64,000 nt of DNA from a phage. Position 1 is the first letter of the stretch, and every line of letters begins with the position of its first letter. A program made the position numbers and the translations under genes. This document shows, in pieces, positions 3,772-62,454 of the stretch. Below the pieces are notes generated by a model. That model was not told where the DNA came from. It saw only the letters and a list, made by a program, of their open reading frames with translations, and ran no database searches. The DNA lies in the sequence record QB031382.1; one strand, 5' to 3'.

Positions 3772-4188
3772 ATGACATTAGAAGATATCATTGTTAAACC
3801 TGAGAACTATGACCAATACAATCTATCAACTCAATCTGTGGACCTTGGATGCGCCACTGCCAGTGCGTGGCTGGTTAACGGAAAAGAGCTGGATAAATGC
3901 TTAGAAGCTCACATGTCTATTAACAAGTTTCTGGATGAAAATACTCACTGGCTTGAGGGTGCAGGCGTATATGCTTCATGGTTGGAGAGTATGGGATTCG
4001 ACTACCAATCTGAAGAGGGGTGGTGGAGCTATTTAGCTATCTGTCCAGAGACGCTACAATGCTTCATGAAATATTCTGAAGATTTGGAGTACCGGGCGAT
4101 GGTTGATAGTGCTATTGCCCGTTATAGCCGTAAACCTTTTTCCCACGACATTAAAACTGTGGAAGAATTTGTTGAAGTTTTCTGTTGA
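3772..4188 (+). CDS. hypothetical protein
   Basis: Track ORF; RBS AAGGAG upstream. Confidence 0.55.
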   Translation: MTLEDIIVKPENYDQYNLSTQSVDLGCATASAWLVNGKELDKCLEAHMSINKFLDENTHWLEGAGVYASWLESMGFDYQSEEGWWSYLAICPETLQCFMKYSEDLEYRAMVDSAIARYSRKPFSHDIKTVEEFVEVFC

Positions 4189-4284
4189 CACAGATTGAAA
4201 GGTGTGCAATTATAACTTCATAGAACGGGAGGACGTGATGAACGAAGAAAACTGGGATGTATAACTAACAGGAGGCCACTGCCC

Positions 4285-4482
4285 ATGATTTATCGAATCC
4301 GTGTAAGAGAAGATGCACCAGGCTGTTACTTTGACTGGCGTGGGTGGTGGTTTCTCCACCCGATGGATGGACTCACAGATAGAATGCTGGATGCTGCCCT
4401 TTATACAGATACCGACATAGAATATAATCTCTATCTGAAGGACGGTATAGATAACGGTCTATTTGAAGCAATTCCTGTGTAA
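4285..4482 (+). CDS. hypothetical protein
   Basis: Track ORF; RBS AGGAGG upstream; TTGACA at 4185. Confidence 0.5.
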   Translation: MIYRIRVREDAPGCYFDWRGWWFLHPMDGLTDRMLDAALYTDTDIEYNLYLKDGIDNGLFEAIPV

Positions 4483-4550
4483 GAGGATGTGATAGCCATG
4501 TTTTATGATCTTCCTATAGCGCCACCACCTGTTGAACCCGGAGAACTAAG

Positions 4551-4976
4551 ATGACCTATGAAATGCCAAAACTGATTCGTGACGATGCCCAAAACGCTCA
4601 CACCATTATTATGGGCAAACGCATGGATATTATTTGTCATAAAGATTTCTGGGAAGGAAGTTACTTCACAGAGTATTTTGGTAAACTGGACAATGGTCTG
4701 CTGATCCAGTTCTACACCGATGCGGAAAACAACATTCACTGGGAGTTCGAAACTGAAGATATCCATAAACTTTTCACCTTCCTCGGTATTAAGGTTGAGG
4801 CCAAGTTTGAAGAAGGTGAGTGCGACGATTGTGGATTCTACGAGGTAACAGATTTCTATCTTCCGAGTGGTGAGAACCTTTACTATGAAAGCCACTTCGG
4901 TAACTCCAATATGCCACAGTGCTGGACTGAGTTTTTTGAAATTGTGGAAGAGGAGTTGGCATATCGTGATTATTGA
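4551..4976 (+). CDS. hypothetical protein, translationally coupled to macrodomain gene
   Basis: Track ORF; its TGA stop overlaps the GTG start of the next gene. Confidence 0.5.
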   Translation: MTYEMPKLIRDDAQNAHTIIMGKRMDIICHKDFWEGSYFTEYFGKLDNGLLIQFYTDAENNIHWEFETEDIHKLFTFLGIKVEAKFEEGECDDCGFYEVTDFYLPSGENLYYESHFGNSNMPQCWTEFFEIVEEELAYRDY

Positions 4977-5424
4977 TACTGTAGAGGGAGATTTAATCTC
5001 CCTTTTTAAGAGTGGTGCTGGTCACCTGATCCACGGTTGTAACTGCTTCCACACAATGGGCAAGGGTGTAGCAAAACAGATTGCCCGTGAGTTCCCTCAA
5101 GCATTGGCAGCTGACAAAACGACTACCTACGGTTGCCTAAGTAAGCTAGGTGCGTTCTCTCGGTGGGAGCACTTATCTCCGAAAGGTATTGTCTACGGAA
5201 TCAATCTATACACTCAGTTCTACCCAGGGCCTAATGCTGAATATTTCTCAATTCTGAAAGGCTTTGAACGAGTCAATGAGATATTCAAGGGATCTACTTT
5301 ACCATTCTACATCCCTAAGATTGGGTGCGGCATAGGCGGCTTGAAATGGGGACACGTAGAGGACGTTATTAACCTTGCCACTTTTGATATAGATATTATC
5401 GTGGTGGAGTACAAAGAGTGTTGA
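4966..5424 (+). CDS. macrodomain protein, TARG1/DarG-like ADP-ribose hydrolase candidate
   Basis: Track ORF 4867..5424 trimmed to GTG 4966 after GAGGAG; motifs EGDLISLF..HLIHGCNCFHTMGKGVAKQIAREFP and PKIGCGIGGLKWGHVEDVI resemble TARG1/OARD1-type macrodomains. Confidence 0.65.
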   Translation: MIIDTVEGDLISLFKSGAGHLIHGCNCFHTMGKGVAKQIAREFPQALAADKTTTYGCLSKLGAFSRWEHLSPKGIVYGINLYTQFYPGPNAEYFSILKGFERVNEIFKGSTLPFYIPKIGCGIGGLKWGHVEDVINLATFDIDIIVVEYKEC

Positions 5425-5449
5425 CAGCCGGATTTTAAGGTGGTATAGT
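5421..5449 (+). promoter_or_regulatory. sigma70-like promoter
   Basis: TTGACA 5421-5426, 17-bp spacer, TATAGT 5444-5449. Confidence 0.65.
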
Positions 5450-5477
5450 CACCACAACGATTAAGACAGGGGGCACT

Positions 5478-5678
5478 ATGGAGACTAAAATCTTAATTCT
5501 AGCTGTGATAGATACAACAGAAGGGGCTATATTTGAATCTGCAGGAGGGTATTTCTACCTGCCCTATGGAAAAAGAACTTCCGAGCCGAGTAAAGATTCA
5601 ATCCTCAAAGTGTTCCCGTGTTCTTTCTGGCTGGAGATTCTGGTAGAGGATTGCAAAGGATTGGAGAGACAATTATGA
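5478..5678 (+). CDS. hypothetical protein
   Basis: Track ORF downstream of promoter. Confidence 0.5.
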   Translation: METKILILAVIDTTEGAIFESAGGYFYLPYGKRTSEPSKDSILKVFPCSFWLEILVEDCKGLERQL

Positions 5679-5869
5679 GAAACAAGAAAGAGCTTTACTC
5701 TGGTGAGTGGATCAACGATCAACAGATCGGAGAGGTAACCTGCTTCCGATGTTTTACCAGGTACAATATTAAAACTGCACCAAAAAGTGTTCCAAAGACT
5801 GACGGTTATTACATAAAAGAACCTCATTGCCCAAAATGTAAATGCCGATTGTACTGGAGCAATCTGTAA
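5675..5869 (+). CDS. small zinc-ribbon protein
   Basis: Track ORF 5618..5869 trimmed to ATG 5675 after GGAGAG; CFRC and CPKCKC cysteine pairs. Confidence 0.5.
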   Translation: MRNKKELYSGEWINDQQIGEVTCFRCFTRYNIKTAPKSVPKTDGYYIKEPHCPKCKCRLYWSNL

Positions 5870-5873
5870 GAGG

Positions 5874-5901
5874 TTGACATCTGAAAACTGCAGTGTATAA
5901 T
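5874..5901 (+). promoter_or_regulatory. sigma70-like promoter
   Basis: TTGACA 5874-5879, 16-bp spacer, TATAAT 5896-5901. Confidence 0.65.
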
Positions 5902-5932
5902 ATACTCATAAACTAACAGAGAGCGATGTATT

Positions 5933-6124
5933 ATGGTAATTTTTAACCGGGATGGTATCATAGTTAGACAGCACCCGTTCCTTGAATACTATCAAATTGA
6001 GCAATGGTGCTACGGGGATTGCAGTCACTCCTATGGGCAAAGTTGGGGATATCGCACAGTTTTTGAATCAACAGACCTTGACAAAGTAAGACAGAAAGTT
6101 TTAGAACTTATTAACAACAAGTGA
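5933..6124 (+). CDS. hypothetical protein
   Basis: Track ORF downstream of promoter. Confidence 0.5.
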   Translation: MVIFNRDGIIVRQHPFLEYYQIEQWCYGDCSHSYGQSWGYRTVFESTDLDKVRQKVLELINNK

Positions 6125-6131
6125 GTATGAT

Positions 6132-6464
6132 ATGGTAACATTAGAAAGACGTAAAGCTATTGCCGCTACACTGGCAGACATCTTTTGGGATTGTAATTTA
6201 AAAGATACCCGATATTGCGGCGCATCTGTAGATGTATTATTCCCACGGCCCACCATTGTTGCAATGGGCAGTCTACTGGGCGTAGTTGCAGGTGCATGGG
6301 ATAAGGAAGGCGGTTTTTATATCTGGCAACCTGACTACGGTACCTGGAAAGAAGTAAGGGGTGCTGATGACTTTGGGCCTGCAGTTGCTAAGATGGATGG
6401 CTGGGAAATTTATGTTGGAAACGACATGAAGCTGAAAGGCGAGATTGTTTACTGGTTACCTTAA
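6132..6464 (+). CDS. hypothetical protein
   Basis: Track ORF. Confidence 0.45.
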   Translation: MVTLERRKAIAATLADIFWDCNLKDTRYCGASVDVLFPRPTIVAMGSLLGVVAGAWDKEGGFYIWQPDYGTWKEVRGADDFGPAVAKMDGWEIYVGNDMKLKGEIVYWLP

Positions 6465-6484
6465 GAAAGTGCAGGAGATAAAGT

Positions 6485-6730
6485 ATGAACAAAGGGTGGA
6501 CATTCGTAGACGGCGTTGAAAACATGCCTCTCGGAAAGTATATCGTAGCCATGGCTGACAAGAATGGCAATGTAGATTTCGGAGCTTGCGAGGTTGTTCT
6601 TGCAGGATCTGGTGGCTATGTGCACAAAACTGGGGTAATTAATGGTCAGTTCTACTTTGATCACAACCCTGTTGTAGCGTATATGGCTATGCCAGAGTTC
6701 AAGCTACCAAAGGAAGGTGCTGATGTTTAA
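6485..6730 (+). CDS. hypothetical protein
   Basis: Track ORF; RBS AGGAGA upstream. Confidence 0.55.
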   Translation: MNKGWTFVDGVENMPLGKYIVAMADKNGNVDFGACEVVLAGSGGYVHKTGVINGQFYFDHNPVVAYMAMPEFKLPKEGADV

Positions 6731-6956
6731 GCTTAAATCTGCATGGAACATTGCTGTAGGCGATGAGATCCGCATTCCGGGTGGGAAGACCGTTATGAAG
6801 ATATCCCGTATTGAATACGAAGGTGACCGTGTATTCCATATTTTTGCAGAAGATGGTCGAGAAATTTATATACAGGCGGGCTCACACATCTATATTCGTA
6901 AAGGGGATGACAAACGACAGAGATCATCATTTCAACTGCAGGGTATGTATTCCTGA
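6717..6956 (+). CDS. hypothetical protein
   Basis: Track ORF; start overlaps previous gene. Confidence 0.5.
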   Translation: MLMFKLKSAWNIAVGDEIRIPGGKTVMKISRIEYEGDRVFHIFAEDGREIYIQAGSHIYIRKGDDKRQRSSFQLQGMYS

Positions 6957-7288
6957 CAATCATTGCGCTGATCATCTTGGTGGTGGTGTATGGATTTGTT
7001 ATCCTGCCTATTCTTGAGACATTTAGTTTGTGTCGGTGTTGGAGAAAGGCTTACGGACCACAGCCGTGGAAAGACTGGCCTCATCTGTTACGCATAGCGT
7101 TCTCCTATGCCTATGATCACTCCAGCAGTGCATGCATAACTGGGTATCACGCCCACAACTGGAACTGGGAAGGGTTGGGGAGATGGAATGTTATAAAAAC
7201 TATACCTCTACGCATGTACAAGCCTAAAAACAAAGATAGTTGATACTTGAAAATCCCTGGCACATCAAACATAAGGAGGATTTCTAAA

Positions 7289-7543
7289 ATGGATTTCCTC
7301 CTTTTGATATTTTACCTGGCCGGATATTTTAAAATTCTTAGAAAATCAGAAAATGGATCGAAAACTAAAATGGATTTTTTCAAGACAGGCACGATAAGCT
7401 GTGCTAATCATCCTATCGTTCGCACCGTACTTCAAATCACCGTTCCAGATTTTCCGCACACACTCTCACCCTTCTACCAGAACTTTCCCAACTTACCTTC
7501 GGCCTTTTATGACAATAAGTTAATTATTATCAGTAAGTTTTGA
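7289..7543 (+). CDS. hypothetical small protein with hydrophobic N-terminus
   Basis: Track ORF 7247..7543 trimmed to ATG 7289 after AAGGAGGA; sits in repeat-rich AT-rich DNA so coding status is uncertain. Confidence 0.35.
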   Translation: MDFLLLIFYLAGYFKILRKSENGSKTKMDFFKTGTISCANHPIVRTVLQITVPDFPHTLSPFYQNFPNLPSAFYDNKLIIISKF

Positions 7544-7554
7544 TACATCTCTCT

Positions 7555-7745
7555 CAGTACTCGATCTGTTTTTCATTTCAAAGATTGGATTTTCTGAAAA
7601 TTTTTCTCGATAAATTTTTCGGTACTCGATCTGTTTTTCGTTTTCTGAATCGGATTTTCTTGAAATTGGTCCAGCACCAGATCTAAAATTTTTGGGAACG
7701 AAAGCGATTTTTCGTTTTCAGAAATGGATTTTTAAAATTTCTATA
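7555..7745. repeat. tandem direct repeats, about 65-bp unit, 2-3 copies
   Basis: GTACTCGATCTGTTTTTC exact at 7557-7574 and 7622-7639, each followed by GGATTTTCT-GAAA-type sequence; degenerate third copy near 7700. Confidence 0.7.
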
Positions 7746-7874
7746 TGGGAATATTTTATGAGGTATTATTTTATATAGAATTGTCACGGTAGGTAATTAG
7801 CATGCTAACTAAATTTATGAAATGCGAAAAGTTCTCATTTAGAATTTTGAATGATAATCATTCTCGTTTGCAGA

Positions 7875-7903
7875 ATAACGGGCACCCCCGGTGATTGTCT
7901 CCC
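7875..7903. repeat. 29-bp inverted-repeat arm A, partner at 15983..16011
   Basis: ATAACGGGCACCCCCGGTGATTGTCTCCC is the exact reverse complement of 15983-16011; degenerate tandem copy near 8012-8050. Confidence 0.85.
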
Positions 7904-8412
7904 GGCCCCTACTGCCCCGGCTTGCTATTATAGTATCACACAGGACAAAGAAAGCAAGGAGTTTTTGCATAAATTTTTAGACGATAATGATAATCGTTCT
8001 CATTTCATGCAGCGCCCATCCCCGGTGGTTGTCTCCCCCGTCACCGGTGCCTGCCGTCCTTTCGATATGTATATTGTGCCACCTGGCGGGGCCGCTGTCA
8101 ACACTTTTCAAAAATTTTTTTCTAACCTGATGCACTAACCGCTGCAACCTGGCGGGGCCAGCCTGGCAGGACCTAACTGACCAGGTGGGCCTATGCTATA
8201 GGATAGGTAACAATTGAAGAGGAGGTACAAAAAATGGAAGGTAATATGATCCCCTGGAAAATGTAGCTATTAATGACGCTGAGGCTATCGCCCTGGTTGA
8301 AAAGGCTATGGCGGGAGCGTTGGAACATAAAGAAGAGTACGAAAAAATTATGGTTAACCTGGCAGGGTCGGCGGCTGAGGAATTTTGCCCAAAAAATAAT
8401 TTTAACTAGTGG

Positions 8413-8441: not shown

Positions 8442-8493
8442 TATCCTCGCAAGGTGAACAACACCACACTAATTAACAGAGAGGATAAAAATC

Positions 8494-8691
8494 ATGAACG
8501 CCTACGGAATCAAAGTACGTCGCAACACTCGCCAGGTGGTCACCAATCAAGTGATTTGCCGGGCGGATGTAACCATCAACAACGGGCAAGGCCTTTATAA
8601 ATTTCGTCGCGGTCATAGTTATACCCTGCAACAGCTTAATCGTTGCGCCCTGACAAAAGGCCAGATCAACCACTGGTTTAATAAAAAATAA
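8494..8691 (+). CDS. hypothetical protein
   Basis: Track ORF; RBS GAGGA upstream. Confidence 0.55.
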   Translation: MNAYGIKVRRNTRQVVTNQVICRADVTINNGQGLYKFRRGHSYTLQQLNRCALTKGQINHWFNKK

Positions 8692-8694
8692 GTA

Positions 8695-8723
8695 TTGACA
8701 TATAGCCTGACACAAAATACACT
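8695..8723 (+). promoter_or_regulatory. sigma70-like promoter
   Basis: TTGACA 8695-8700, 17-bp spacer, TACACT 8718-8723. Confidence 0.5.
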
Positions 8724-8755
8724 AAAAGCACAAAAGACACTAAGAGGATAAAATC

Positions 8756-9154
8756 ATGAAAACCACTACCTTTAATTTTGACAATGCGGACTTTTCTTTT
8801 TCTGATGTCAAGAACTGCCGCCGTGATCGTGGATTTTATAAGGCTTATAATCTGGTGGGCCTGGACGATGACAATAATTTGCACGAAGTAGCTGAGATCC
8901 GGTATTATGCCGCCGCCAGTGGGAACACTCACTACTGCGTTTTTTGGATACACGACAACAAGAACAATAAGTACGGCTATACTGGCGGCAAGGCGAGCGG
9001 TCACGGTTATGATAAAGCTAACGCAGCACTTGAGAGCGCATTAAATGCTATGGGGATCACTGCCGACGGCTGGATCTACGAAGAAGAGTTTTTGTCGGCA
9101 CTTGCTGACCGCCTGGGATATAAAAAGCACATTGTAACATGTGCCCACGAATAA
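8756..9154 (+). CDS. hypothetical protein
   Basis: Track ORF; RBS AAGAGGA upstream. Confidence 0.55.
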   Translation: MKTTTFNFDNADFSFSDVKNCRRDRGFYKAYNLVGLDDDNNLHEVAEIRYYAAASGNTHYCVFWIHDNKNNKYGYTGGKASGHGYDKANAALESALNAMGITADGWIYEEEFLSALADRLGYKKHIVTCAHE

Positions 9155-9165
9155 AAAAAAAATTA

Positions 9166-9193
9166 TTGACACGCTGCAAAATTCAAGTAAACT
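9166..9193 (+). promoter_or_regulatory. sigma70-like promoter
   Basis: TTGACA 9166-9171, 16-bp spacer, TAAACT 9188-9193, preceded by A-tract. Confidence 0.5.
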
Positions 9194-9241
9194 AGACACA
9201 AAAGGCGGGAATGTTTCCCGCCAACACAAAGGAAAAAGATC

Positions 9242-9646
9242 ATGAATAAGAACGTACGCCGCATCATGAACGAGTTGGCAAACGATGAAAAAATTATTGA
9301 CATGCATTTGATCAACATTTGCCGCCGTTGTGTAACATATAACAACCGCGCCGCAAAAGCGCGTGAGATGAACGCAAAAGGCACCTTAAAGCCATTCCAG
9401 GTGGTGGTAAAGGCCATTAAAAATGTAACTAATACGGCAAACCAGGTACAGGGGAACACCAACGAGAGTACCAATATTGATCCGGCTTACATCATGAAAC
9501 GGATCCGGACCTGTAAGAACAAAGAGCAAGTGTATAATGTTATAGACTGGTTGGATTCTATGGGCGACGTGGTGTACAATAGATTCTCGGCAGCTATTGA
9601 GATCCAGCTTGACAGGTTGGACGGTAAAGTACTGAAAACTTATTAA
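9242..9646 (+). CDS. hypothetical protein
   Basis: Track ORF; RBS AAGGAAA upstream. Confidence 0.5.
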   Translation: MNKNVRRIMNELANDEKIIDMHLINICRRCVTYNNRAAKAREMNAKGTLKPFQVVVKAIKNVTNTANQVQGNTNESTNIDPAYIMKRIRTCKNKEQVYNVIDWLDSMGDVVYNRFSAAIEIQLDRLDGKVLKTY

Positions 9647-9694
9647 GTTTATTTTTAGATGGCCTTGACTCCAGGGCCATCAATAAAGTAAACT
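9645..9694 (+). promoter_or_regulatory. repeated promoter-hairpin module, copy 1
   Basis: AT-rich tract, then GATGGCC..GGCCATC inverted repeat containing TTGACT, then TAAACT; near-identical copies at 10266 and 13992. Confidence 0.55.
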
Positions 9695-52959: not shown

Positions 52960-54243
52960 TTATTCCAGCACCTCCCAAGTGTCTGGATTAACATTTCGGA
53001 CGCAGATACCGACAGGGAATTGGTAGTTGTTGTCTTCTGTCCTTGCTTGATATTTGAAGGTGACAAACTTGCCGATCATTTCCTGCATCCTGTCATAGCT
53101 ACGCTCCTCGTGCGTACCTTTCATCTTCATTTTAACAACAATACCTTCCTTGTCAACACAGATAAGAACACCTTCATCATTCTTATCTTTCTCAACGTCA
53201 ATAACTTTCACCTCTGCGTCGTTGAACTTTTTCCATTTCAATGCTTCAGATGTTCGCTGACCATACTCATATTTACCACAGAAGTTACGCATGATAGTAC
53301 CTTCATACCCTTCGGACATGAATACACCAACAGACTCTTCGCAATGATCAACTGTGTACGCAATCTCTGCGTCAACAACCTTGATATGGTCAAGCATCAG
53401 AGTGGTAATGGTATCTTCTGCATCCATAAGATCCTTGCAGCGTCCAGACTCTGTTTCTGGATCCCACCACACCTTGTCACTAGGGATATCAAAAATGTGA
53501 TACTCTAGATCATAGCTGCAGTACCCTCCGTAACGCAAATCATCACGAACAGGCTCAACATCGACAGGAATATCTACCTTATTGAAGTTTTTGTATGTTG
53601 ATAAGCCTGCCTTAATTGCGGCATGACGGCGTTTTTTATCTGCCTCGTAGTCTTTATCGATCTCGGCCTGAATCTCTTCCTGTGTGCGCCACCGTTTAGC
53701 AAGAGACACTATTTTCTGCAGAGGCAGGCCATGAATATAGATCTCTCCGTCGAGCTGTTTAATCCCGGTGGTGAAGTGGAAAGAACGAAGTTGCTCCAGA
53801 AGCTTTCCTTGAATAGGGTAGGACTTATTACCACGGGAAATAAATTTAGGCTCACCATTTTGGAAAACAACAAGTAGACGAAGGCCATCTAACTTACGCA
53901 AGATCCAGCAAGGTAATTTAAGTGCCTTTCCACGCTTCAGGTAGTCATGCACCAGCATGGGTAAAAGGTCAACACCCTGCTCGCAATCTTCCATATTTTC
54001 AACATACCCCAGACGGACTTGTTTTTCCCACTTACTGATCGCTTCCAGCTCAGCCTGTTGCTCAGCTGTAGTTTCATTGGCACGACCAACGTTCTTAGGT
54101 GTGCAGATCGTCTCTTTGTATTGCAGTTTACCATCAAGCTTGCCAAACTCTACGATAACCTTATCACCATCCGTGAATACTTTCCACTGTTGGTAGCTGC
54201 CATCTTTGTTCAGTACGTACAGTGTTGTTTTGATCTGATGCAT
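52960..54243 (-). CDS. ATP-dependent DNA ligase
   Basis: Motif I KLDGLR, motif III DGEIYIHG, motif IV EGTIMRN, motif V LKWKK. Confidence 0.8.
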   Translation of the reverse strand: MHQIKTTLYVLNKDGSYQQWKVFTDGDKVIVEFGKLDGKLQYKETICTPKNVGRANETTAEQQAELEAISKWEKQVRLGYVENMEDCEQGVDLLPMLVHDYLKRGKALKLPCWILRKLDGLRLLVVFQNGEPKFISRGNKSYPIQGKLLEQLRSFHFTTGIKQLDGEIYIHGLPLQKIVSLAKRWRTQEEIQAEIDKDYEADKKRRHAAIKAGLSTYKNFNKVDIPVDVEPVRDDLRYGGYCSYDLEYHIFDIPSDKVWWDPETESGRCKDLMDAEDTITTLMLDHIKVVDAEIAYTVDHCEESVGVFMSEGYEGTIMRNFCGKYEYGQRTSEALKWKKFNDAEVKVIDVEKDKNDEGVLICVDKEGIVVKMKMKGTHEERSYDRMQEMIGKFVTFKYQARTEDNNYQFPVGICVRNVNPDTWEVLE

Positions 54244-54512
54244 TACTCAGCCTCTTCCTTAAAAATTTTAAACATCTCTTCTTTGCTCATTACCAACCAG
54301 TCTCCCATAAAGTCAACTAACCAATCCCCTTGGTACAAGACAAGGTTACCAAACGGCTCGACAAGCTCACACATGCGAAGAATATCTCTGGTTCGAACAG
54401 GTGACGATGTAAACACACCTGTATCAATCCACCGTTGCAGATCAGATACTGATGAAGAGCTTCCGTCAAACTGGTGTGCTTCTACAGGTTTAGCAAGATT
54501 AAATAACGGCAT
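54243..54512 (-). CDS. hypothetical protein
   Basis: Track ORF. Confidence 0.5.
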   Translation of the reverse strand: MPLFNLAKPVEAHQFDGSSSSVSDLQRWIDTGVFTSSPVRTRDILRMCELVEPFGNLVLYQGDWLVDFMGDWLVMSKEEMFKIFKEEAE

Positions 54513-54807
54513 TGCAGTCCTCCTTCTCTAATAGGTCTTTTATCGGGTAAACAAGTAGGTGCGGATCGTAATAACTTATAGTTCTATTCTGCCACACTAT
54601 GAACTTAATTACAACTAAATTTACTACATCCTTATCCCCATGTAGTCCAACACACAAATTTGTCCATATCTTGTGGTTGAATACTTTACTGTCGATGTAG
54701 ATTTTAGTGTCAAACTTATCCTCTATCCTGCCTATTAGTTTAACCAATTCTTTCATCTGATCTCCAAACACAGCATCATTTTCAAGATCTCTGGAGTGCT
54801 TGTACAT
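54499..54807 (-). CDS. hypothetical protein
   Basis: Track ORF. Confidence 0.5.
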   Translation of the reverse strand: MYKHSRDLENDAVFGDQMKELVKLIGRIEDKFDTKIYIDSKVFNHKIWTNLCVGLHGDKDVVNLVVIKFIVWQNRTISYYDPHLLVYPIKDLLEKEDCNAVI

Positions 54808-54870
54808 AACTATCTACCTCACTTGCATACTTTCCACAACAAGTAAAGCCGGGATCGCCCGGCTATGTTG

Positions 54871-55584
54871 TTAAATATACTCTGTTACATCCTTGAAGCT
54901 TGAAGGCTTCATGATCTTGCCTTTACTGTCAAGGAATATGATAACTTTATTACCGTTGTAGAATTCCTCTTTAGCAACAAAACCTTCATAGCGACCATCA
55001 AAGCGTCGCTCAAGATCTTTAATCTCCAACTCGATGAGTTGTTCAGCAGGCATATCTGCACTGGCACCGTGTGAATACCGCAGATGGTTGACCCGTGCAA
55101 ACTTGCTGTCATTAGATTTTAGAACCTTCCGCATCATCCCGCACACATCACCGCGAAGCTGGAACAGTAAAGCCGTTGACAGCTCTACTAAGCGGTAAGC
55201 AGACGCTCTTTGCTTAGAGGTATTTTTCGCAGCGATCAGTGTATCATAAAATTCACCGATCTTAAACTTAAGACCTCGCGGGTTATCAAACAGGTTTGAC
55301 CACTTTTCATGGTTATCGTTAACAAGATAAGCGGCATAACTTGTGACAACGTGAAGATCGCAGGCCTCTTTTAGGAGATGATCCCCACCATCACCTTTCT
55401 CCAACTCTTCCAAAACTTCATTGAACTCTTCCTCAATGAAACTCAGCTGAAGTTCGAATGGTGTGTATGATTTTTTCACTTTAGCTGCTACACGGTTCCA
55501 ATTTTCCACCCAGTTGGCAGACCAAAGGTAGTTTTCAGGCTGAGACAGTTTTTCCAGGTTGTCGATCAGTTTAGTATTCAGCAT
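54871..55584 (-). CDS. hypothetical protein, possible MazG-like NTP pyrophosphohydrolase
   Basis: Glu-rich helix SFIEEEFNEVLEELEKGDGGDHLLKE; weak call. Confidence 0.3.
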   Translation of the reverse strand: MLNTKLIDNLEKLSQPENYLWSANWVENWNRVAAKVKKSYTPFELQLSFIEEEFNEVLEELEKGDGGDHLLKEACDLHVVTSYAAYLVNDNHEKWSNLFDNPRGLKFKIGEFYDTLIAAKNTSKQRASAYRLVELSTALLFQLRGDVCGMMRKVLKSNDSKFARVNHLRYSHGASADMPAEQLIELEIKDLERRFDGRYEGFVAKEEFYNGNKVIIFLDSKGKIMKPSSFKDVTEYI

Positions 55585-55598
55585 TAAAAGGCCTCCGC

Positions 55599-56360
55599 TT
55601 ACAGTTCCATAAAGTTTTCTACGATGTCAATAAATGTTTTATCAGAGAAAGCGTCAACCGCCCCGTTAAACCAAACTGGGATGCCGCGATCCTCATACTG
55701 GTAAATGTCACTACGTGAAATGCCATTCTCCCCTAAATGCTGTGAGTCGTATTTGTTAACGATTAGTAGTTTAGTCCCCTTATTACAGGCAGGAAACAGC
55801 TCCCAGTTAAAATTGATAACTGTATTGGAGCACCCTACAAGAATAACCATATCATTGCTAGTCAGAGAAGTCAACAAGTCATACATGTCTGTATACTTTG
55901 GGGCTACTTCTCCGAAGAATACTACATTAGGCTTAACCCAAATATACTTGCTTGTATCTACCTCAGAGTATCCAATGTCTTTAATGACGTCATTCCCTTC
56001 ATCATCCTCATAAACTATTTCTGGCAAATACCCGTGGACATGTAAAATATCTTCATGTTTTACACCAGCACGCTCCAGCAAATCATCTACATTGGTGGTC
56101 AGGTTGATCACACGACCAGACCAGCGGGAATACCACTCAGCTATCCGGAGATGTGCAAGGTTAGGATCAACACTGCCCAGAGCTACACGCCGTGCATTAT
56201 AAAAGTCATGCACCTTATAGTAGTTCTTGGCAAAGGTGTGGATGTTACACACCTCATCGATGCTGAAATTCTCCCACATTGCAGTGCCACCAGATCGGAA
56301 AGTTGGGATACCAGATTCAGCGCTCAAACCAGCACCAGAGATAATGATCAGTCGTCGCAT
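55599..56360 (-). CDS. Sir2-family NAD-dependent deacylase / ADP-ribosyltransferase
   Basis: GAGLSAESGIPTFR, TTNVDDL, HVHG, VVFFGE, VGCS sirtuin motifs; no zinc-finger cysteines seen. Confidence 0.7.
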   Translation of the reverse strand: MRRLIIISGAGLSAESGIPTFRSGGTAMWENFSIDEVCNIHTFAKNYYKVHDFYNARRVALGSVDPNLAHLRIAEWYSRWSGRVINLTTNVDDLLERAGVKHEDILHVHGYLPEIVYEDDEGNDVIKDIGYSEVDTSKYIWVKPNVVFFGEVAPKYTDMYDLLTSLTSNDMVILVGCSNTVINFNWELFPACNKGTKLLIVNKYDSQHLGENGISRSDIYQYEDRGIPVWFNGAVDAFSDKTFIDIVENFMEL

Positions 56361-56368
56361 AAGTGTCC

Positions 56369-56719
56369 TCAGTAGATGTTTTGTTTAATCTCTATTCCAA
56401 ACTTTTTAAACGAGTCAGCAGCAAGCATGAATTTACGAGCCGCTGATGGGTTAGAAGTATGCACGAAAATCTTCACGTTGTCAACTACAGGAGGCTTACC
56501 AAATACAAATTTTTCTTCCAGCATAGATAGGCAATCGTACCCTTCAAATACCTCTCCAAGGTCGTTGTCCATGTGCCACTCAGAAACGCGCCTATAGAGC
56601 TTTCCCTTATCGTTAATAAAATCCATAAACTCAGAGGAATTCTTTAGCCAAAGAGCATCTGGGAGCCCATAATTTGACGGATCTCTCAAGTCATCCAGCC
56701 ACACAATCAACTTCTTCAT
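56369..56719 (-). CDS. hypothetical protein, coupled to RNA ligase gene
   Basis: Track ORF; 4-nt overlap with RNA ligase gene. Confidence 0.5.
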   Translation of the reverse strand: MKKLIVWLDDLRDPSNYGLPDALWLKNSSEFMDFINDKGKLYRRVSEWHMDNDLGEVFEGYDCLSMLEEKFVFGKPPVVDNVKIFVHTSNPSAARKFMLAADSFKKFGIEIKQNIY

Positions 56720-57651
56720 TGCATATAGTCCTCGTTGTGGAAATAGCAGTCAAGTATCTCACGGCGTTCCTGCTCCAAGAGGCAATTCCACACATCTTCT
56801 GTGTAGTTTCTACGAATGAAGTTTACCATGCCGTAAAACTCTTCGTCAACACGTTTAAAGATATCATTATCCCAAATCTTCCAAGCTTTACCCCTCATTA
56901 CGGCCTTCCGTGCCAAATAGTATGGAGACTTGATCTTCAGCTGCAGATCATAAGGATAGTAAGGCTTACGAATCATATACCCTTCACCTCTTGTTTCTGC
57001 AGCTAATTCTTTTGCATAGCTGAACGGAATTTCACGCACAGTGTGAGGACGTTTTGCACCAAGGTATTTGGCAATCCCATCTAAAGCTGCTTCTGGTAGC
57101 ATTATTCCAGAATCATTATATCTGCAACCTATCAAATATGCGCCATGATCTTCCTGAACAATATGCGGATCTGAAGGGTGACAAATTTCAAACATGAATG
57201 TCATGTTTTCATGGCCCATAACCTTCTTGATAAGATCTAAATTACCACATTGCTCCTGGATTGTTTCCTTTGCAAGGTTACAATATGGAGAATCAAGAGA
57301 CCCGGTTGTTGAGAACAACAGTTCACCTTTGTGAGATGATACCACACCAAGGAATCCGTTCTTTTTCTCTACCGCCGTCACAAGTTTATTGTCAGGCAGG
57401 TTTGTGGAATTTTCTCCCAAGTTAAACACTTTTGTGAAGGGCCATGCCACAACATTTCCTTCATTACCAACAACAATTCCTCGGCACTCTGGTAAACGCG
57501 GAGACAAATGCCATAAATTGTTGTAGAATACTTTTCTGGCATATTTGTAGATCTTTAATCCAAGATCTGGGTAATACCGACTGGTTACAAGACCTTTATC
57601 CACTAAATCATCTGCATTAAAATACTTCATCATACATTCCTCGTTTGTCAT
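56716..57651 (-). CDS. RNA ligase-like nucleotidyltransferase
   Basis: EKKNGF (KxNG variant of lysine motif I), FMFEI (III), GEGYMIRK (IV), LKIKS (V). Confidence 0.55.
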   Translation of the reverse strand: MTNEECMMKYFNADDLVDKGLVTSRYYPDLGLKIYKYARKVFYNNLWHLSPRLPECRGIVVGNEGNVVAWPFTKVFNLGENSTNLPDNKLVTAVEKKNGFLGVVSSHKGELLFSTTGSLDSPYCNLAKETIQEQCGNLDLIKKVMGHENMTFMFEICHPSDPHIVQEDHGAYLIGCRYNDSGIMLPEAALDGIAKYLGAKRPHTVREIPFSYAKELAAETRGEGYMIRKPYYPYDLQLKIKSPYYLARKAVMRGKAWKIWDNDIFKRVDEEFYGMVNFIRRNYTEDVWNCLLEQERREILDCYFHNEDYMQ

Positions 57652-57665
57652 TTTGTCACTCTATC

Positions 57666-57691
57666 TTGACACACAAATAAACTCGTGTCAA
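57666..57691. promoter_or_regulatory. inverted repeat in divergent promoter region
   Basis: TTGACAC 57666-57672 and GTGTCAA 57685-57691, perfect 7-bp arms. Confidence 0.6.
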
Positions 57692-57694
57692 CAC

Positions 57695-57723
57695 TTGAAA
57701 TGAACAAAAGAGTTATGTATACT
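57695..57723 (+). promoter_or_regulatory. sigma70-like promoter for kinase operon
   Basis: TTGAAA 57695-57700, 17-bp spacer, TATACT 57718-57723. Confidence 0.55.
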
Positions 57724-57751
57724 ACCATTAAAATTAAAACGGAGGATTACT

Positions 57752-58162
57752 ATGTCTAAAATGCTATATATCGTGCGTGGTCTACCAGGTTCTGGCAAAT
57801 CAACACTGGCAAATGCACTATCTTTAGAGGGGCTGTACCCACATTTTGAGAACGACATGTTCTGGTACGACGACGATGGAAATTACAACTGGGATGCAAG
57901 TAAAGTAACACTTGCAGCAAAATGGTGCAAAGATAACGTAGAAGATATGATACGTATGGGATACGACCGTGTCGTGGTAAGTAATACGTTTACAAAAGAA
58001 AAACATGTGCAAGAATATGTTGACATGGCAATCAGTCATGGGTATAGTTATACTGTGATCGTGGTTGAAAACCGCCACGGTAATAAGAGCATTCATGATG
58101 TTCCAAATAGGGTTGTGGACCGTATGGAGCGTGAGCTTAAAAACTGCATTAAACTAAAATGA
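57752..58162 (+). CDS. P-loop kinase, polynucleotide kinase-like
   Basis: GLPGSGKST Walker A, VVVSNTF; size and layout like the T4 Pnk kinase domain; RBS GGAGG. Confidence 0.5.
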   Translation: MSKMLYIVRGLPGSGKSTLANALSLEGLYPHFENDMFWYDDDGNYNWDASKVTLAAKWCKDNVEDMIRMGYDRVVVSNTFTKEKHVQEYVDMAISHGYSYTVIVVENRHGNKSIHDVPNRVVDRMERELKNCIKLK

Positions 58163-58169
58163 GGGATGT

Positions 58170-58724
58170 ATGAAATATTTTGTAACAAGCGATACACACT
58201 TTCTCCACCAGCGAGTCATGGAGTTTGATTCATGTCAAAAACACAGATCTCAGTATGATCGCAATCTTGACAGTATGAATGCAGGAATCATCGCCGAGTG
58301 GAACTCTGTTGTGTCACCGGAAGACACTGTGTTTCACTTGGGCGATATTGCATGCACTAAGGATAAGAATATCAACAAATTTCTCCCAGATGTTCTAAAT
58401 ATGTTGAACGGACATATTATTCTTGTTCGTGGTAACCATGACACAAGGACGACTGTCAGAATTATGAAAGAGTTCGGTCATGAGGTTGTAGATTATTACG
58501 AGCTTCGCCACAACAAGAATTTGATCTGTATGAGCCATTACCAGTTTGCAAAGTGGAACAGAAAGCCTCACGGATCAGTCCAACTGTTCGGTCATGCTCA
58601 CGGAACCACACAGCAGTTGTTTGGCAGGCAGTTTGATGTCGGTTGGGATGTGTGGGGGAGACTCTTACCATTAGAAGAGGCATACCGTATTGCAATGAGT
58701 CTTGCTATTGACAGCGGGGAGTAA
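58170..58724 (+). CDS. calcineurin-like metallophosphoesterase
   Basis: TSDTH, GDIA, VRGNHD, GHAHG metal-binding motifs. Confidence 0.65.
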   Translation: MKYFVTSDTHFLHQRVMEFDSCQKHRSQYDRNLDSMNAGIIAEWNSVVSPEDTVFHLGDIACTKDKNINKFLPDVLNMLNGHIILVRGNHDTRTTVRIMKEFGHEVVDYYELRHNKNLICMSHYQFAKWNRKPHGSVQLFGHAHGTTQQLFGRQFDVGWDVWGRLLPLEEAYRIAMSLAIDSGE

Positions 58725-58771
58725 TCCCTGCTATTTTAAAGAAAATTGCCACACAAGGAGAATCAGGAGAT

Positions 58772-59122
58772 ATGAAAGATGGGGATAAGCTACTATATCT
58801 TAAAGTCCCCCTTGAAATACTGTCTATGTCAAAAGTTTTGAATGACACAACCGGGGAGGTTGTTGTTCTTGACTTATATGACAAGATCGTATACTGCTAC
58901 CTGCACAACTGGTATAAGCTTGGAGGAAATTCACGCTTCACACCCAGCACAAGGAAAATTGCAGCAGATGTTGGGATAAAGAAAACAAAAGCAGCAGCGT
59001 GCGTTAAAACTTTAGAATGTGCAGGAGTGGTTGAAATATCCACACAAGGGAGAGGTAAAAGATGTACATTTTCCAAAGTTTTGCCGCCAGAGGAAGTTAT
59101 TCGAATGGCAACAACTGGTTAG
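58772..59122 (+). CDS. putative winged-helix DNA-binding protein
   Basis: Track ORF; STRKIAADVGIKKTKAAACVKTLECAGVVE looks like an HTH; directly upstream of palindromic operator array. Confidence 0.4.
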   Translation: MKDGDKLLYLKVPLEILSMSKVLNDTTGEVVVLDLYDKIVYCYLHNWYKLGGNSRFTPSTRKIAADVGIKKTKAAACVKTLECAGVVEISTQGRGKRCTFSKVLPPEEVIRMATTG

Positions 59123-59197
59123 ACCAGTAAAAACTTAAATATCTGTACTATAAAGGTTCGTATGTTTTATGTTCACTTTGGAGCTAAGATTATTAAC

Positions 59198-59257
59198 TGT
59201 CCGCCACGCGGACACATCTGCCCGTAATACGGACACTAACTGTCCGCAATACGGACA
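59198..59257. promoter_or_regulatory. array of palindromic operator-like sites
   Basis: TGTCCGC-CAC-GCGGACA 59198-59214, TGTCCG-CAATA-CGGACA 59241-59257, partial site between, centres about 21 bp apart. Confidence 0.65.
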
Positions 59258-59762
59258 CATAAAGAATATAACTAAAATAACTAAATAATAAAAATAAAAG
59301 ATCTAGTACTTATGGTACTAAAGTACATATACTTAACTTATGTAGAATATACTAGATCCTAAGTACCATGTTTTAAATTTATTACTTATTATGGGTAGTG
59401 TCGGCCCCTCATTGGCACTCGCCTACGAGGGGGCGAGATGCCGGGCCTCCATAGTGCACACAATAACAGGAGTGCATACATGCAGGACTGTTAACATGTG
59501 TGGGAGCGAAGCGATAGCGCAGGCCAAAGGCCGAGCACTAATGTGGACCACCGACGAAAGCTTGCCAGCGCCGTAAGGAGTCGGTTGAGAGACTCCCGCG
59601 CGAGTTTGGTTAAAGTTTATGTGTGGAAACGGACAAGAAGGCTCCTAAATCTCACCACAGCTGTGTAAACTCTACCAAGTAAGGCAATCGCACCAGTTTG
59701 ATAGAAAAGCTCGTTACAAAGCGATACAGTGAGTTTTTCTATAACTTGAAGAGGAGGCAGCT

Positions 59763-60341
59763 ATGAGTTCACGCAAAGATGACCGCGAAAAGATTGCAAA
59801 ACGTTATCAGAATGAAGAACAGATGGAGAAAACTTTCAAGTGGAAGCCAGGTTTCCAGCGTAATCATTCTAACGCTAGTGATCGTAAGCATCCGGATAAG
59901 TGGCTAACACCGCCAAATGATGGCATGCAGGTTGGTGATGAGAAGGAGCTATCGCCTGGAAAAGATGGCAACTACATTCGCACTAAGGACGCTGGTCCAA
60001 AGGATGACAGCTATCTTGTAGATAAAGTTCTTGATGGTATTGATGTAGATGTTGACACTACACGGAACTTTTTTCTTGGGTGGTATCGCACAGGTTTTTT
60101 CGACATCAAGGCCATTCGTCGTGTTTGTGATATTAAAAAGTCTGCATATGATGACGACTCGTTACATCGCACCCTGAGACAATATTCAGAAAGATATGGT
60201 CATCCGGTTATCACTCTTGACGATGTTAACGAAGTGATGTATCATGCAGAGGTTGTTGCAGGAAGATTTGGTGATGCATATCTGGATATCCTTTCTGCAA
60301 AGGATGAGGTAATGTTAAATAAGATTTACTATGAACGCTGA
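59763..60341 (+). CDS. hypothetical protein
   Basis: Track ORF; RBS GAGGAGG. Confidence 0.6.
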   Translation: MSSRKDDREKIAKRYQNEEQMEKTFKWKPGFQRNHSNASDRKHPDKWLTPPNDGMQVGDEKELSPGKDGNYIRTKDAGPKDDSYLVDKVLDGIDVDVDTTRNFFLGWYRTGFFDIKAIRRVCDIKKSAYDDDSLHRTLRQYSERYGHPVITLDDVNEVMYHAEVVAGRFGDAYLDILSAKDEVMLNKIYYER

Positions 60342-61641: not shown

Positions 61642-61716
61642 GCCCTGTTAGCTTAGTGGATAAAGCAGCGGCCTTCTAAGCCGTTGACACTGGTTCGAGT
61701 CCAGTACGGGGTGCCA
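61642..61716 (+). tRNA. tRNA-Arg(UCU): tRNA-Arg (anticodon UCU)
   Basis: Hand-folded cloverleaf: acceptor GCCCTGT/ACGGGGT, loop CTTCTAA, T-loop TTCGAGT, encoded CCA. Confidence 0.8.
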
Positions 61717-61720
61717 AATT

Positions 61721-61807
61721 GGGGAGTTATCCCGTAGAGGTAGCGGTGTAGACTGTAAATCTATTGTCATTGCGACTCGGGTGGTTCGACTCCACCACTC
61801 CCCACCA
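61721..61807 (+). tRNA. tRNA-Tyr(GUA): tRNA-Tyr (anticodon GUA), long variable arm
   Basis: Acceptor GGGGAGT/ACTCCCC, loop CTGTAAA, T-loop TTCGACT, encoded CCA. Confidence 0.75.
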
Positions 61808-61921
61808 AATTTATATTTTTAAATGCATAAATCATACAGATAATGACATTGATATTTATCGTCGTTTATACTAGTCACTAACTGCTCGAAAATCAGTGTC
61901 ATTATCAGTGTAATTTATAAA

Positions 61922-62012
61922 GGAGGGTAGGGAGCAATGGTGCTCAAGCGGTCTTGAAAACCGTCCCGTTGAGGATGACTCGATGATGGTTCGATTCCAT
62001 TACTCTCCGCCA
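61922..62012 (+). tRNA. tRNA-Ser(UGA): tRNA-Ser (anticodon UGA), long variable arm
   Basis: Acceptor GGAGGGT/ACTCTCC with one GU, loop CTTGAAA, T-loop TTCGATT, encoded CCA. Confidence 0.75.
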
Positions 62013-62110
62013 CATTGTTGACCTTGTAATTAAGCGAAAGCCGGAAGCAGAACCGGATTATCAAATGTTACAGTCGTCATCGCCGACTAGCCACATGGTC
62101 AACATATTGC

Positions 62111-62207
62111 GCTAGGTAAGCCCTTTGGCAAGGGCGAGGATTTTTAATCCTGAAAATAGACGCGGTAGTCGTTGAATACATAGGTGGTTCGATTCCATCA
62201 CCTAGCA
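62111..62207 (+). tRNA. atypical tRNA-like gene, identity unresolved
   Basis: Perfect acceptor GCTAGGT/ACCTAGC, D-arm and T-arm (TTCGATT), but the anticodon region is a 6-bp hairpin AGGATT/AATCCT with UUU loop and about 30 extra nt; 97 nt. Confidence 0.4.
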
Positions 62208-62214
62208 CCTTTTT

Positions 62215-62290
62215 GCTGATGTAGCACAATCGGTAGTGCAATTGATTTGTAATCAATAGGTTGCAGGTTCAAGTCCTGCCATCAGCACCA
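62215..62290 (+). tRNA. tRNA-Thr(UGU): tRNA-Thr (anticodon UGU)
   Basis: Acceptor GCTGATG/CATCAGC, stem ATTGA/TCAAT, loop TTTGTAA, T-loop TTCAAGT, encoded CCA. Confidence 0.8.
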
Positions 62291-62291
62291 T

Positions 62292-62366
62292 GGCCCTGTA
62301 GCTGGAAGGTTCAAGCAAGCGACTCATAATCGCCAGACGGTGGTTCAATTCCACCCAGGGCCACCA
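62292..62366 (+). tRNA. tRNA-Met(CAU): tRNA-Met or tRNA-Ile2 (anticodon CAU)
   Basis: Acceptor GGCCCTG/CAGGGCC, loop CTCATAA, T-loop TTCAATT, encoded CCA. Confidence 0.75.
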
Positions 62367-62377
62367 AATTATAAATA

Positions 62378-62454
62378 CTCCGCGTAGCTCAGCTTGGTAG
62401 AGCGCCTGATTTGGGATCAGGAGGTCGAGTGTTCGAATCACTCCGTGGAGACCA
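62378..62454 (+). tRNA. tRNA-Pro(UGG): tRNA-Pro (anticodon UGG)
   Basis: Acceptor CTCCGCG/CGTGGAG, D-arm GCTCAGCTTGGTAGAGC, loop TTTGGGA, T-loop TTCGAAT, encoded CCA. Confidence 0.75.

Follow-up and report, generated by a model that had tools for sequence, protein, structure and literature searches.

The ligase, kinase and phosphoesterase of a Vequintavirus sirtuin-linked neighbourhood as the predicted core of a phage RNA repair module

Described RNA repair systems and the Vequintavirus locus

Nucleases that cleave RNA or tRNA, among them PrrC, RloC, Cas13, HEPN RNases, Schlafens and retron/PARIS effectors, are now seen as widely used weapons against phages. To our knowledge, T4 provides the only phage RNA repair pathway established by experiment, in which Pnkp and Rnl1 counteract PrrC. 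A 64,000-nucleotide stretch of phage DNA (sequence record QB031382.1; hereafter the window) contains genes for an Rnl1-type RNA ligase, a Pnk-like kinase and a metallophosphoesterase, which we consider likely to form, as three separate enzymes, the core of a module that heals and seals the ends of RNAs cut by metal-independent RNases. The window derives from an Escherichia coli phage of the rV5/FV3 group (Vequintavirus), with positions 55500-59200 sharing 98.6% identity with Escherichia phage FV3 and 94-97% with approximately 118 other Vequintavirus (rV5-like) genomes. The coordinates of the three genes given in a preliminary description of the window were confirmed, as were those of the ORF at 56369-56719 and the presence of an adjacent Sir2 gene. 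The three core genes are:

56716..57651, minus strand: Rnl1-type ATP-dependent RNA ligase (longest open reading frame (ORF) 311 amino acids (aa); RNA_lig_T4_1, 8e-15)
57752..58162, plus strand: stand-alone Pnk-like P-loop 5'-kinase (136 aa; AAA_33, 1e-10; PHROG 505 'polynucleotide kinase', 5e-10)
58170..58724, plus strand: binuclear metallophosphoesterase of the aq_1665 clade (184 aa; Metallophos_2, 3e-7; also Metallophos)

The closest described system is a published gene neighbourhood. The cREC domain was defined, and its operonic ties to RNA ligases noted, by Iyer et al. 2021 (PMC7824862), and a sirtuin-linked RNA-repair neighbourhood of type 2, with Escherichia phage V5 and Proteus phage Mydo as prototypes, was subsequently described by Iyer, Burroughs, Anantharaman & Aravind 2022 (Viruses 14:1977; PMC9503650). 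By their definition, type 2 comprises a sirtuin, a T4-like ligase, cREC, a nucleotide kinase and MazG, a calcineurin-like phosphoesterase being optional, and the sirtuin was proposed to act like KptA on 2'-phosphates (PMC9503650). All six genes are present at 54871-58724 of the window, which belongs to the same genus as V5, and nothing substantive distinguishes the two. GenBank records of relatives use the names RNA ligase, 3'-phosphatase/5'-polynucleotide kinase, phosphoesterase and Sir2, although naming varies by record, and in the record of phage HMD-6 the cREC gene is called 'cyclic-phosphate processing receiver domain-containing protein'. Thus the cassette is already published for this phage genus and annotated in GenBank, its recognition here is the re-discovery of a prediction, and the novelty implied by the preliminary description was overestimated. 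A Pakpunavirus genome paper likewise predicted tRNA repair by a kinase and a ligase (PMC12846349). What is added here is the delineation of the trio as the core with Sir2 and cREC as lineage-specific partners, the kinase-ligase and tri-domain fusions, an inversion in Vequintavirus, and the dispensability of the genes in phage Bas54.

Among the better characterized systems, T4 Pnkp and Rnl1 share with this locus the pairing of an Rnl1-family ligase with a Pnk-family 5'-kinase and the logic of healing followed by sealing. The locus differs from T4 in that its kinase is stand-alone and lacks the HAD/DxDxT 3'-phosphatase, 3' healing being assigned to the separate metallophosphoesterase; in that its kinase has no Arg38/Asp85 equivalents and the C-terminal domain of its ligase is shorter; and in having no essential tail-fibre role. 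The bacterial Pnkp/Hen1 and Pnkp1-Rnl-Hen1 systems (Clostridium thermocellum, Capnocytophaga gingivalis) contain the same triad of kinase, binuclear metallophosphoesterase and ligase, but here the three activities reside on separate polypeptides, and no Hen1 methyltransferase was detected among the nine ORFs scanned from 52960 to 60341. Unlike the fungal and plant splicing pathway of Trl1 and Tpt1, the locus has neither a 2H cyclic phosphodiesterase nor Tpt1/KptA, for which cREC and Sir2 are only hypothesised substitutes.

Conservation and catalytic residues of the three core enzymes

The ligase contains motif I (K96-x-N98-G99, within EKKNG; the codon of the nucleophile K96 lies at 57366-57364), motif III (F154-E155), motif IV (E223-G224) and motif V (K239-x-K241), all of which, together with R57, K74 and F76, are invariant in five genera (39-47% identity) and in 50 database homologues. 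The preliminary identification of an RNA-ligase-like protein from EKKNG and motifs III-V is therefore borne out across genera. These motifs align to K99, E159, E227-G228 and K240/K242 of T4 Rnl1, which was the sole match (1e-10) in a PDB search with the ligase family profile. The fold is nearer to T4 Rnl1 than to Rnl2, Rnl3, Rnl5, DNA ligases or capping enzymes, and in structure the protein matches T4 Rnl1 and Trl1, a tRNA ligase of fungi, best, which answers the earlier concern that the protein might prove to be a DNA ligase or capping enzyme. Single-sequence PDB searches with either the ligase or the kinase returned nothing significant and profiles were needed. Translation probably begins at M7 or M8 (57633/57630) rather than at the start of the longest ORF, as indicated by a GAGGA ribosome-binding site, by homologues that begin MK.FN and by Bas54, in which the protein is annotated as 305 aa.

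In the kinase, the P-loop (G10-T18), Asp35 and the lid Arg108 are all invariant in the alignment. The protein is a single domain with no fused HAD (DxDxT) 3'-phosphatase, and its profile alignment to T4 Pnk spans the whole kinase domain. The best PDB matches of the profile were to polynucleotide kinases of RNA repair, namely Pnkp1 (4xrp, 1e-5), T4 Pnk (2.7e-5), CthPnk (1e-4) and the Trl1 kinase of fungi, in keeping with the Pnk-like assignment made initially and not with a nucleoside or dNMP kinase.

The phosphoesterase retains a complete binuclear-metal site of the calcineurin-like superfamily (DxH / GD / GNH(D/E) / H / GHxH motifs), in agreement with its original description as a calcineurin-type enzyme and with its Metallophos_2 and Metallophos matches; the metal ligands D8, H10, G58-D59, G88-N89-H90, H123 and G141-H142-x-H144 are the same in all 54 sequences compared. 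It is not of the lambda-phosphatase-like type found as the healing domain of bacterial Pnkp. Since bacterial Pnkp also heals 3' ends with a metallophosphoesterase, the use of such an enzyme for this step introduces no new logic, and the protein is presumed, on homology, to heal 2',3'-cyclic and 3'-phosphate ends. Orthologues of the phosphoesterase in four other genera have a conserved C-terminal I-x-V-V-D-H-H, a motif missing from the window protein, which ends in ...AIDSGE.

Co-occurrence of the three genes was assessed in 80 IMG/VR loci encoding the ligase family (36-88% identity), with a partner counted if it lay within 6 kb, and orthology of the ligase, kinase and phosphoesterase across genera was confirmed by alignment. 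The phosphoesterase accompanies the ligase in 66/80 loci and the kinase in 60/80, both on the ligase strand in all loci except that of Vequintavirus, and kinase and ligase are fused in one ORF in 11/80. Tight co-directional phosphoesterase-ligase-kinase operons occur in the Justusliebigvirus phages Paula and phi92, in Aeromonas phage 2L372X (Plateaulakevirus) and in Vibrio phage 5P1c; in the Pakpunavirus PAK_P2 the ligase and kinase are adjacent and the phosphoesterase lies approximately 1 kb upstream. Phosphoesterase, ligase, cREC, kinase, Sir2 and DNA ligase genes are all co-directional in Mydo, which represents another Vequintavirinae genus, indicating that the divergent layout of the window is a genus-level inversion in Vequintavirus. 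Of the 50,697 records of a phage database, 743 contained the ligase and 622 the kinase, in phages of Escherichia (199 and 198 records, respectively), Pseudomonas (177 and 173), Klebsiella (36 and 36), Acinetobacter (24 and 24), Salmonella (14 and 14) and Aeromonas (13 and 13) as well as Vibrio; genus by genus, the two genes thus have nearly equal counts, in keeping with their acting together. The phosphoesterase-ligase-kinase trio is thus a widespread conserved core.

Further evidence of functional coupling, beyond that available to the preliminary description, comes from bacteria. The nearest relatives in bacterial genomes are fusions of two kinds: Cardiobacteriaceae have a kinase-ligase fusion followed by a phosphoesterase gene, and Leptolyngbyaceae cyanobacteria encode tri-domain proteins of 710-790 aa in the order AAA_33 kinase, metallophosphoesterase, Rnl1-type ligase. 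The phosphoesterase domain of these cyanobacterial proteins is lambda-phosphatase-like rather than aq_1665-like, suggesting that one phosphoesterase has replaced another of the same superfamily. In Leptolyngbya sp. PCC 7375 (locus positions 4546-6861 and 8466-9647) an RtcB gene lies 1.6 kb downstream of the tri-domain gene, and no Hen1 partner was found beside the latter. The cyanobacterial protein has a Pnkp-like architecture with an Rnl1-type instead of a Pnkp-type ligase domain.

Proposed pathway, accessory genes and alternative readings

The steps proposed for the pathway derive from homology, conserved residues, operon conservation and the fusions. Metal-independent host RNases (anticodon nucleases, HEPN RNases and toxin RNases) would leave 2',3'-cyclic-phosphate and 5'-OH ends. 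The 136-aa kinase would then phosphorylate the 5'-OH, the aq_1665-type metallophosphoesterase would open and remove the 2',3'-cyclic or 3'-phosphate to yield a hydroxyl, as the corresponding domain of bacterial Pnkp does, and the ligase, adenylylated on K96, would activate the 5'-phosphate and seal it to the 3'-OH. As a prediction, the initial proposal that 5'-kinase, 3'/cyclic-phosphate removal and sealing are divided among three proteins is therefore supported by homology, motifs and gene context. Given the structural kinship of the ligase with two tRNA ligase families and the T4 precedent, tRNAs are the likely substrates and escape from tRNA- or RNA-cleaving defences is the likely benefit.

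Several observations weigh against this pathway. The C-terminus of the ligase is approximately 70 residues short of the tRNA-specificity domain of T4 Rnl1 (T4 residues ~255-374); with 304-311 aa compared to 374 in T4, and only about 60 helical residues after motif V, the protein is not equivalent to T4 Rnl1 over its full length. It scored 35 bits against TIGR02308, the T4 RnlA equivalog model, for which the cutoff is 242 bits. Because of the shorter C-terminus and the failed equivalog cutoff, the ligase is assigned to the Rnl1 family, with predicted sealing activity, and not as an equivalent of T4 RnlA. The kinase has W38 and N78 in place of Arg38 and Asp85 of T4 Pnk, position 38 being W, H, F, Q or Y among homologues and N78 invariant. 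In work by Wang, Lima and Shuman from 2002, Arg38 and Asp85 are said to hold the 3'-phosphate of the acceptor, so that acceptor recognition by the phage kinase must differ from that of T4 Pnk. The sole close structural relative of the phosphoesterase is aq_1665, a protein of unknown function. Moreover, the phosphoesterase family was present in 1358 phage records, compared to 743 for the ligase, including many phages without the ligase, and it reaches phages of Gram-positive hosts; its substrate therefore need not be RNA ends. Finally, a literature search on Vequintavirinae RNA repair or anticodon-nuclease sensitivity found no biochemical or genetic test, and there is no report of a phenotype on hosts that carry such nucleases.

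The module extends beyond the cassette as first described, since Sir2 and a MazG-like gene also belong to it, such that the full module occupies 54871-58724. The genes co-directional with the ligase, and the tRNA cluster found further along the window, are:

56369..56719, minus strand: cREC protein (cyclic-phosphate processing receiver-like; 116 aa; PF20274, 4.5e-14)
55599..56360, minus strand: class-III-like sirtuin (Pfam SIR2, 1e-26)
54871..55584, minus strand: MazG-like nucleotide pyrophosphohydrolase, last gene of the leftward operon (PHROG 671, 5.5e-22)
61642..62454, plus strand: tRNA cluster (Arg-TCT, Tyr-GTA, Ser-TGA, atypical Lys-UUU-like, Thr-TGT, Met-CAT, Pro-TGG)

The ORF at 56369-56719 had been described as an unknown ORF coupled to the ligase; coupling is evident from an ATGA overlap joining it to the 3' end of the ligase gene, but the ORF is not unknown, as its product scored 53.3 bits against PF20274 (gathering cutoff 27 bits) and is a cREC protein. 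Its residues D9-D10, D51-N-D53-L-G and H87-T-S-N-P, which include the acidic, receiver-like pocket, are invariant, and a cREC profile found no matches in PDB. Hydrolysis of cyclic phosphates by cREC is a prediction (PMC7824862, PMC9503650). A cREC gene without an adjacent RNA ligase is found in phAPEC8 (locus positions 4495-4839) and in the T5-like Providencia phage PR1 (locus positions 3989-4345), in the latter case in the middle of a tRNA gene cluster. The sirtuin is CobB/SIRT5-like and closest to CobB (1s5p, 6e-21); it retains the catalytic HG and a Y54-x-x-R57 pocket and is missing the Zn-ribbon cysteines. No Pfam or PDB match was obtained for the MazG-like protein. Genes of NAD+ metabolism also occur in other cassettes: directly downstream of the ligase-kinase pair in Pseudomonas phage PAK_P2 (locus positions 4896-8148) are ribose-phosphate pyrophosphokinase-like and nicotinamide phosphoribosyltransferase-like genes, which constitute the NARP1 pair (PMC12846349), and Prs-like genes lie near the cassette in Mydo (locus positions 1-624) and Paula (1-568). 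The link between RNA repair and NAD+ genes therefore recurs without depending on Sir2.

As the preliminary description stated, the tRNA cluster is about 4 kb away, its first tRNA (61642) being 3.99 kb from the ligase start. It includes an atypical tRNA-like gene at 62111-62207 (+), unannotated in the HMD-6 record, which scored 35.5 bits with the Rfam tRNA model and has the anticodon loop UUUUUAA and a UUU (Lys-like) anticodon, and its variable region carries an insertion of approximately 27 nt. ARAGORN reported the gene as 'tRNA-???', giving it a 4-base anticodon. The nucleases PrrC and PARIS both target tRNA-Lys(UUU).

The genes of the leftward operon raise the possibility of a different principal pathway, NAD+-dependent and resembling yeast tRNA splicing, of the kind already proposed by Iyer et al. 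2022 (PMC9503650). Here cREC would open the cyclic phosphate to a 2'-phosphate, and the ligase would seal with the 2'-phosphate kept or after its removal by Sir2, which would transfer ADP-ribose to the 2'-phosphate as an analogue of Tpt1/KptA, leaving the phosphoesterase and the MazG-like protein to clear ADP-ribose cyclic phosphate. Consistent with such a scheme, ligase, cREC, Sir2 and MazG-like genes form one tightly coupled operon, and the sirtuin, its Zn ribbon lost, has the catalytic His and the anion-binding Y-x-x-R. However, Sir2 is present in just 8 and cREC in just 10 of the 80 ligase loci, compared to 60-66 for the kinase and phosphoesterase, indicating that the trio works without Sir2 or cREC. 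The Sir2 clade (1006 phage records) is found mostly in T5-like phages lacking the ligase, with 289 Salmonella phage records containing Sir2 versus 14 containing the ligase; in phi92 Sir2 is located far from the ligase, and the cREC genes of phAPEC8 and PR1 stand apart from any ligase. An NAD+-dependent principal pathway is thus considered unlikely, and the distribution of Sir2 weakens its candidacy as an obligatory pathway member. It is similarly doubtful that Sir2 is an NAD+-dependent RNA 2'-phosphotransferase, a non-homologous analogue of Tpt1/KptA that would bind the 2'-phosphate in its Y-x-x-R anion pocket and, with cREC acting as cyclic phosphodiesterase, provide a second, yeast-like branch of 3' healing parallel to the metallophosphoesterase; this is what Iyer et al. 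2022 hypothesised and is not new. Sir2 and cREC are better viewed as lineage-specific add-ons, plausibly connected to ligation but not needed for it. In Vequintavirinae, where the ligase would be co-transcribed with cREC, Sir2 and the MazG-like gene, these genes probably offer a side pathway that deals with cyclic or 2'-phosphate ends or with ADP-ribose by-products.

Two other readings bear on the purpose of the cassette, and both are affected by transposon sequencing (Tn-seq) of Bas54, which is 94.6% identical to the window over this region. In these data the sirtuin, ligase, kinase, phosphoesterase and MazG-like genes were non-essential and cREC was intermediate (HIDEN-SEQ preprint, 10.1101/2025.11.20.689424, Extended Data Table 8), so that the genes are dispensable on a laboratory host, which fits an accessory, conditional function. 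The cassette might serve the phage's own RNA metabolism (maturing, repairing or circularising its tRNAs or other transcripts, for example) rather than counter-defence, as could be imagined from the phage tRNA cluster 3-4 kb away, the cREC gene among the clustered tRNA genes of a T5-like phage and the tRNA-Lys-like gene with its 27-nt insertion. Set against this are the non-essentiality of the genes in Bas54 under standard conditions, the lack of any identified end-generating RNase among the ORFs examined and the proximity of cellular homologues to RtcB, a stress-repair context, and we regard a role confined to phage RNA as improbable. It is highly improbable that the genes do not constitute an RNA system at all, with the kinase and phosphoesterase managing nucleotide pools and the 'ligase' being mainly a tail-fibre attachment factor like T4 gp63. 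This reading would accommodate GenBank labels of the type 'RNA ligase 1 and tail attachment protein', the breadth of the phosphoesterase family, and the MazG-like pyrophosphohydrolase and DNA ligase nearby, but the ligase catalytic residues are all invariant, kinase-ligase and tri-domain fusions are known, and polynucleotide kinases are the best matches of the kinase. Furthermore, the N-terminal domain of T4 rnlA tolerated no insertions in the same study in which the Bas54 ligase was non-essential (10.1101/2025.11.20.689424), which disfavours the 'tail attachment' label; a role of the ligase in tail-fibre attachment is unsupported by the Bas54 data.

Promoter region, surrounding sequence and implications

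Two non-coding elements were recognised at the boundaries of the leftward operon:

57652..57751, no strand assigned: divergent promoter region (promoter scan, inverted-repeat statistics and alignment of five Vequintaviruses)
54847..54864: GC-rich hairpin of 7 pairs, terminator-like on both strands, at the end of the leftward operon

The perfect inverted repeat previously noted in the shared 100-bp spacer does exist (TTGACAC-N12-GTGTCAA, 57666-57691, with 7-nt arms at 57666-57672 and 57685-57691) and is the only one in the spacer. When the spacer was shuffled, however, 32% of the shuffles contained a perfect repeat of at least 7 nt, as did 22% of genuine 100-bp windows taken from this genome, and HMD-6, Bas54 and Bas49 have CTGCCAC in place of the left arm. 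Given its short arms, chance-level frequency and non-conserved left arm, we reject the repeat as an operator, and it has no support as a regulatory element. In contrast, back-to-back -35 boxes are conserved: TGTCAA at 57686-57691 (TTGACA on the minus strand, for the leftward operon) and TTGAAA at 57695-57700 (+), the latter followed after 17 nt by TATACT at 57718-57723 (+) to give the rightward promoter. Because the paired -35 hexamers are conserved while the repeat is not, the spacer is predicted to be an ordinary divergent pair of sigma-70-type promoters. A near-consensus sigma-70 promoter (TTGACA-17-TATAGT, 11/12 matches) also lies within the kinase ORF at 58020-58048 (+), 120 nt 5' of the phosphoesterase start, and could allow the phosphoesterase to be transcribed separately from the kinase. 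The window contains 43 copies of TTGACA on the plus strand and 46 on the minus strand, compared to approximately 16 expected per strand, and the sign of the GC skew changes near 20 kb and 58 kb, the second switch coinciding with the divergent promoter region.

Just 3' of the phosphoesterase, at 58772-59122 (+), is an ORF with DUF6945/HTH_36 domains, annotated in some records as 'replication initiation protein' and in others as 'transcriptional regulator'; its Bas54 orthologue (bas54_0212) had about 13 transposon reads compared to 90-440 in its neighbours and was classed as 'Intermediate'. A DNA ligase gene is also found nearby in the window. Among the database records, 18 to 25 labelled 'Campylobacter phage', with C. 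jejuni as host, share >92-98% identity with Vequintaviruses of E. coli over 55500-59200, which is odd given the distance between the hosts and suggests mis-assigned hosts or contaminated deposits.

The split trio is far more widespread than the T4 pathway, and several of the phages that carry it are candidates for therapy. If it does repair cleaved tRNAs, this would explain part of the host range of these phages and would give the aq_1665 clade of metallophosphoesterases a function.

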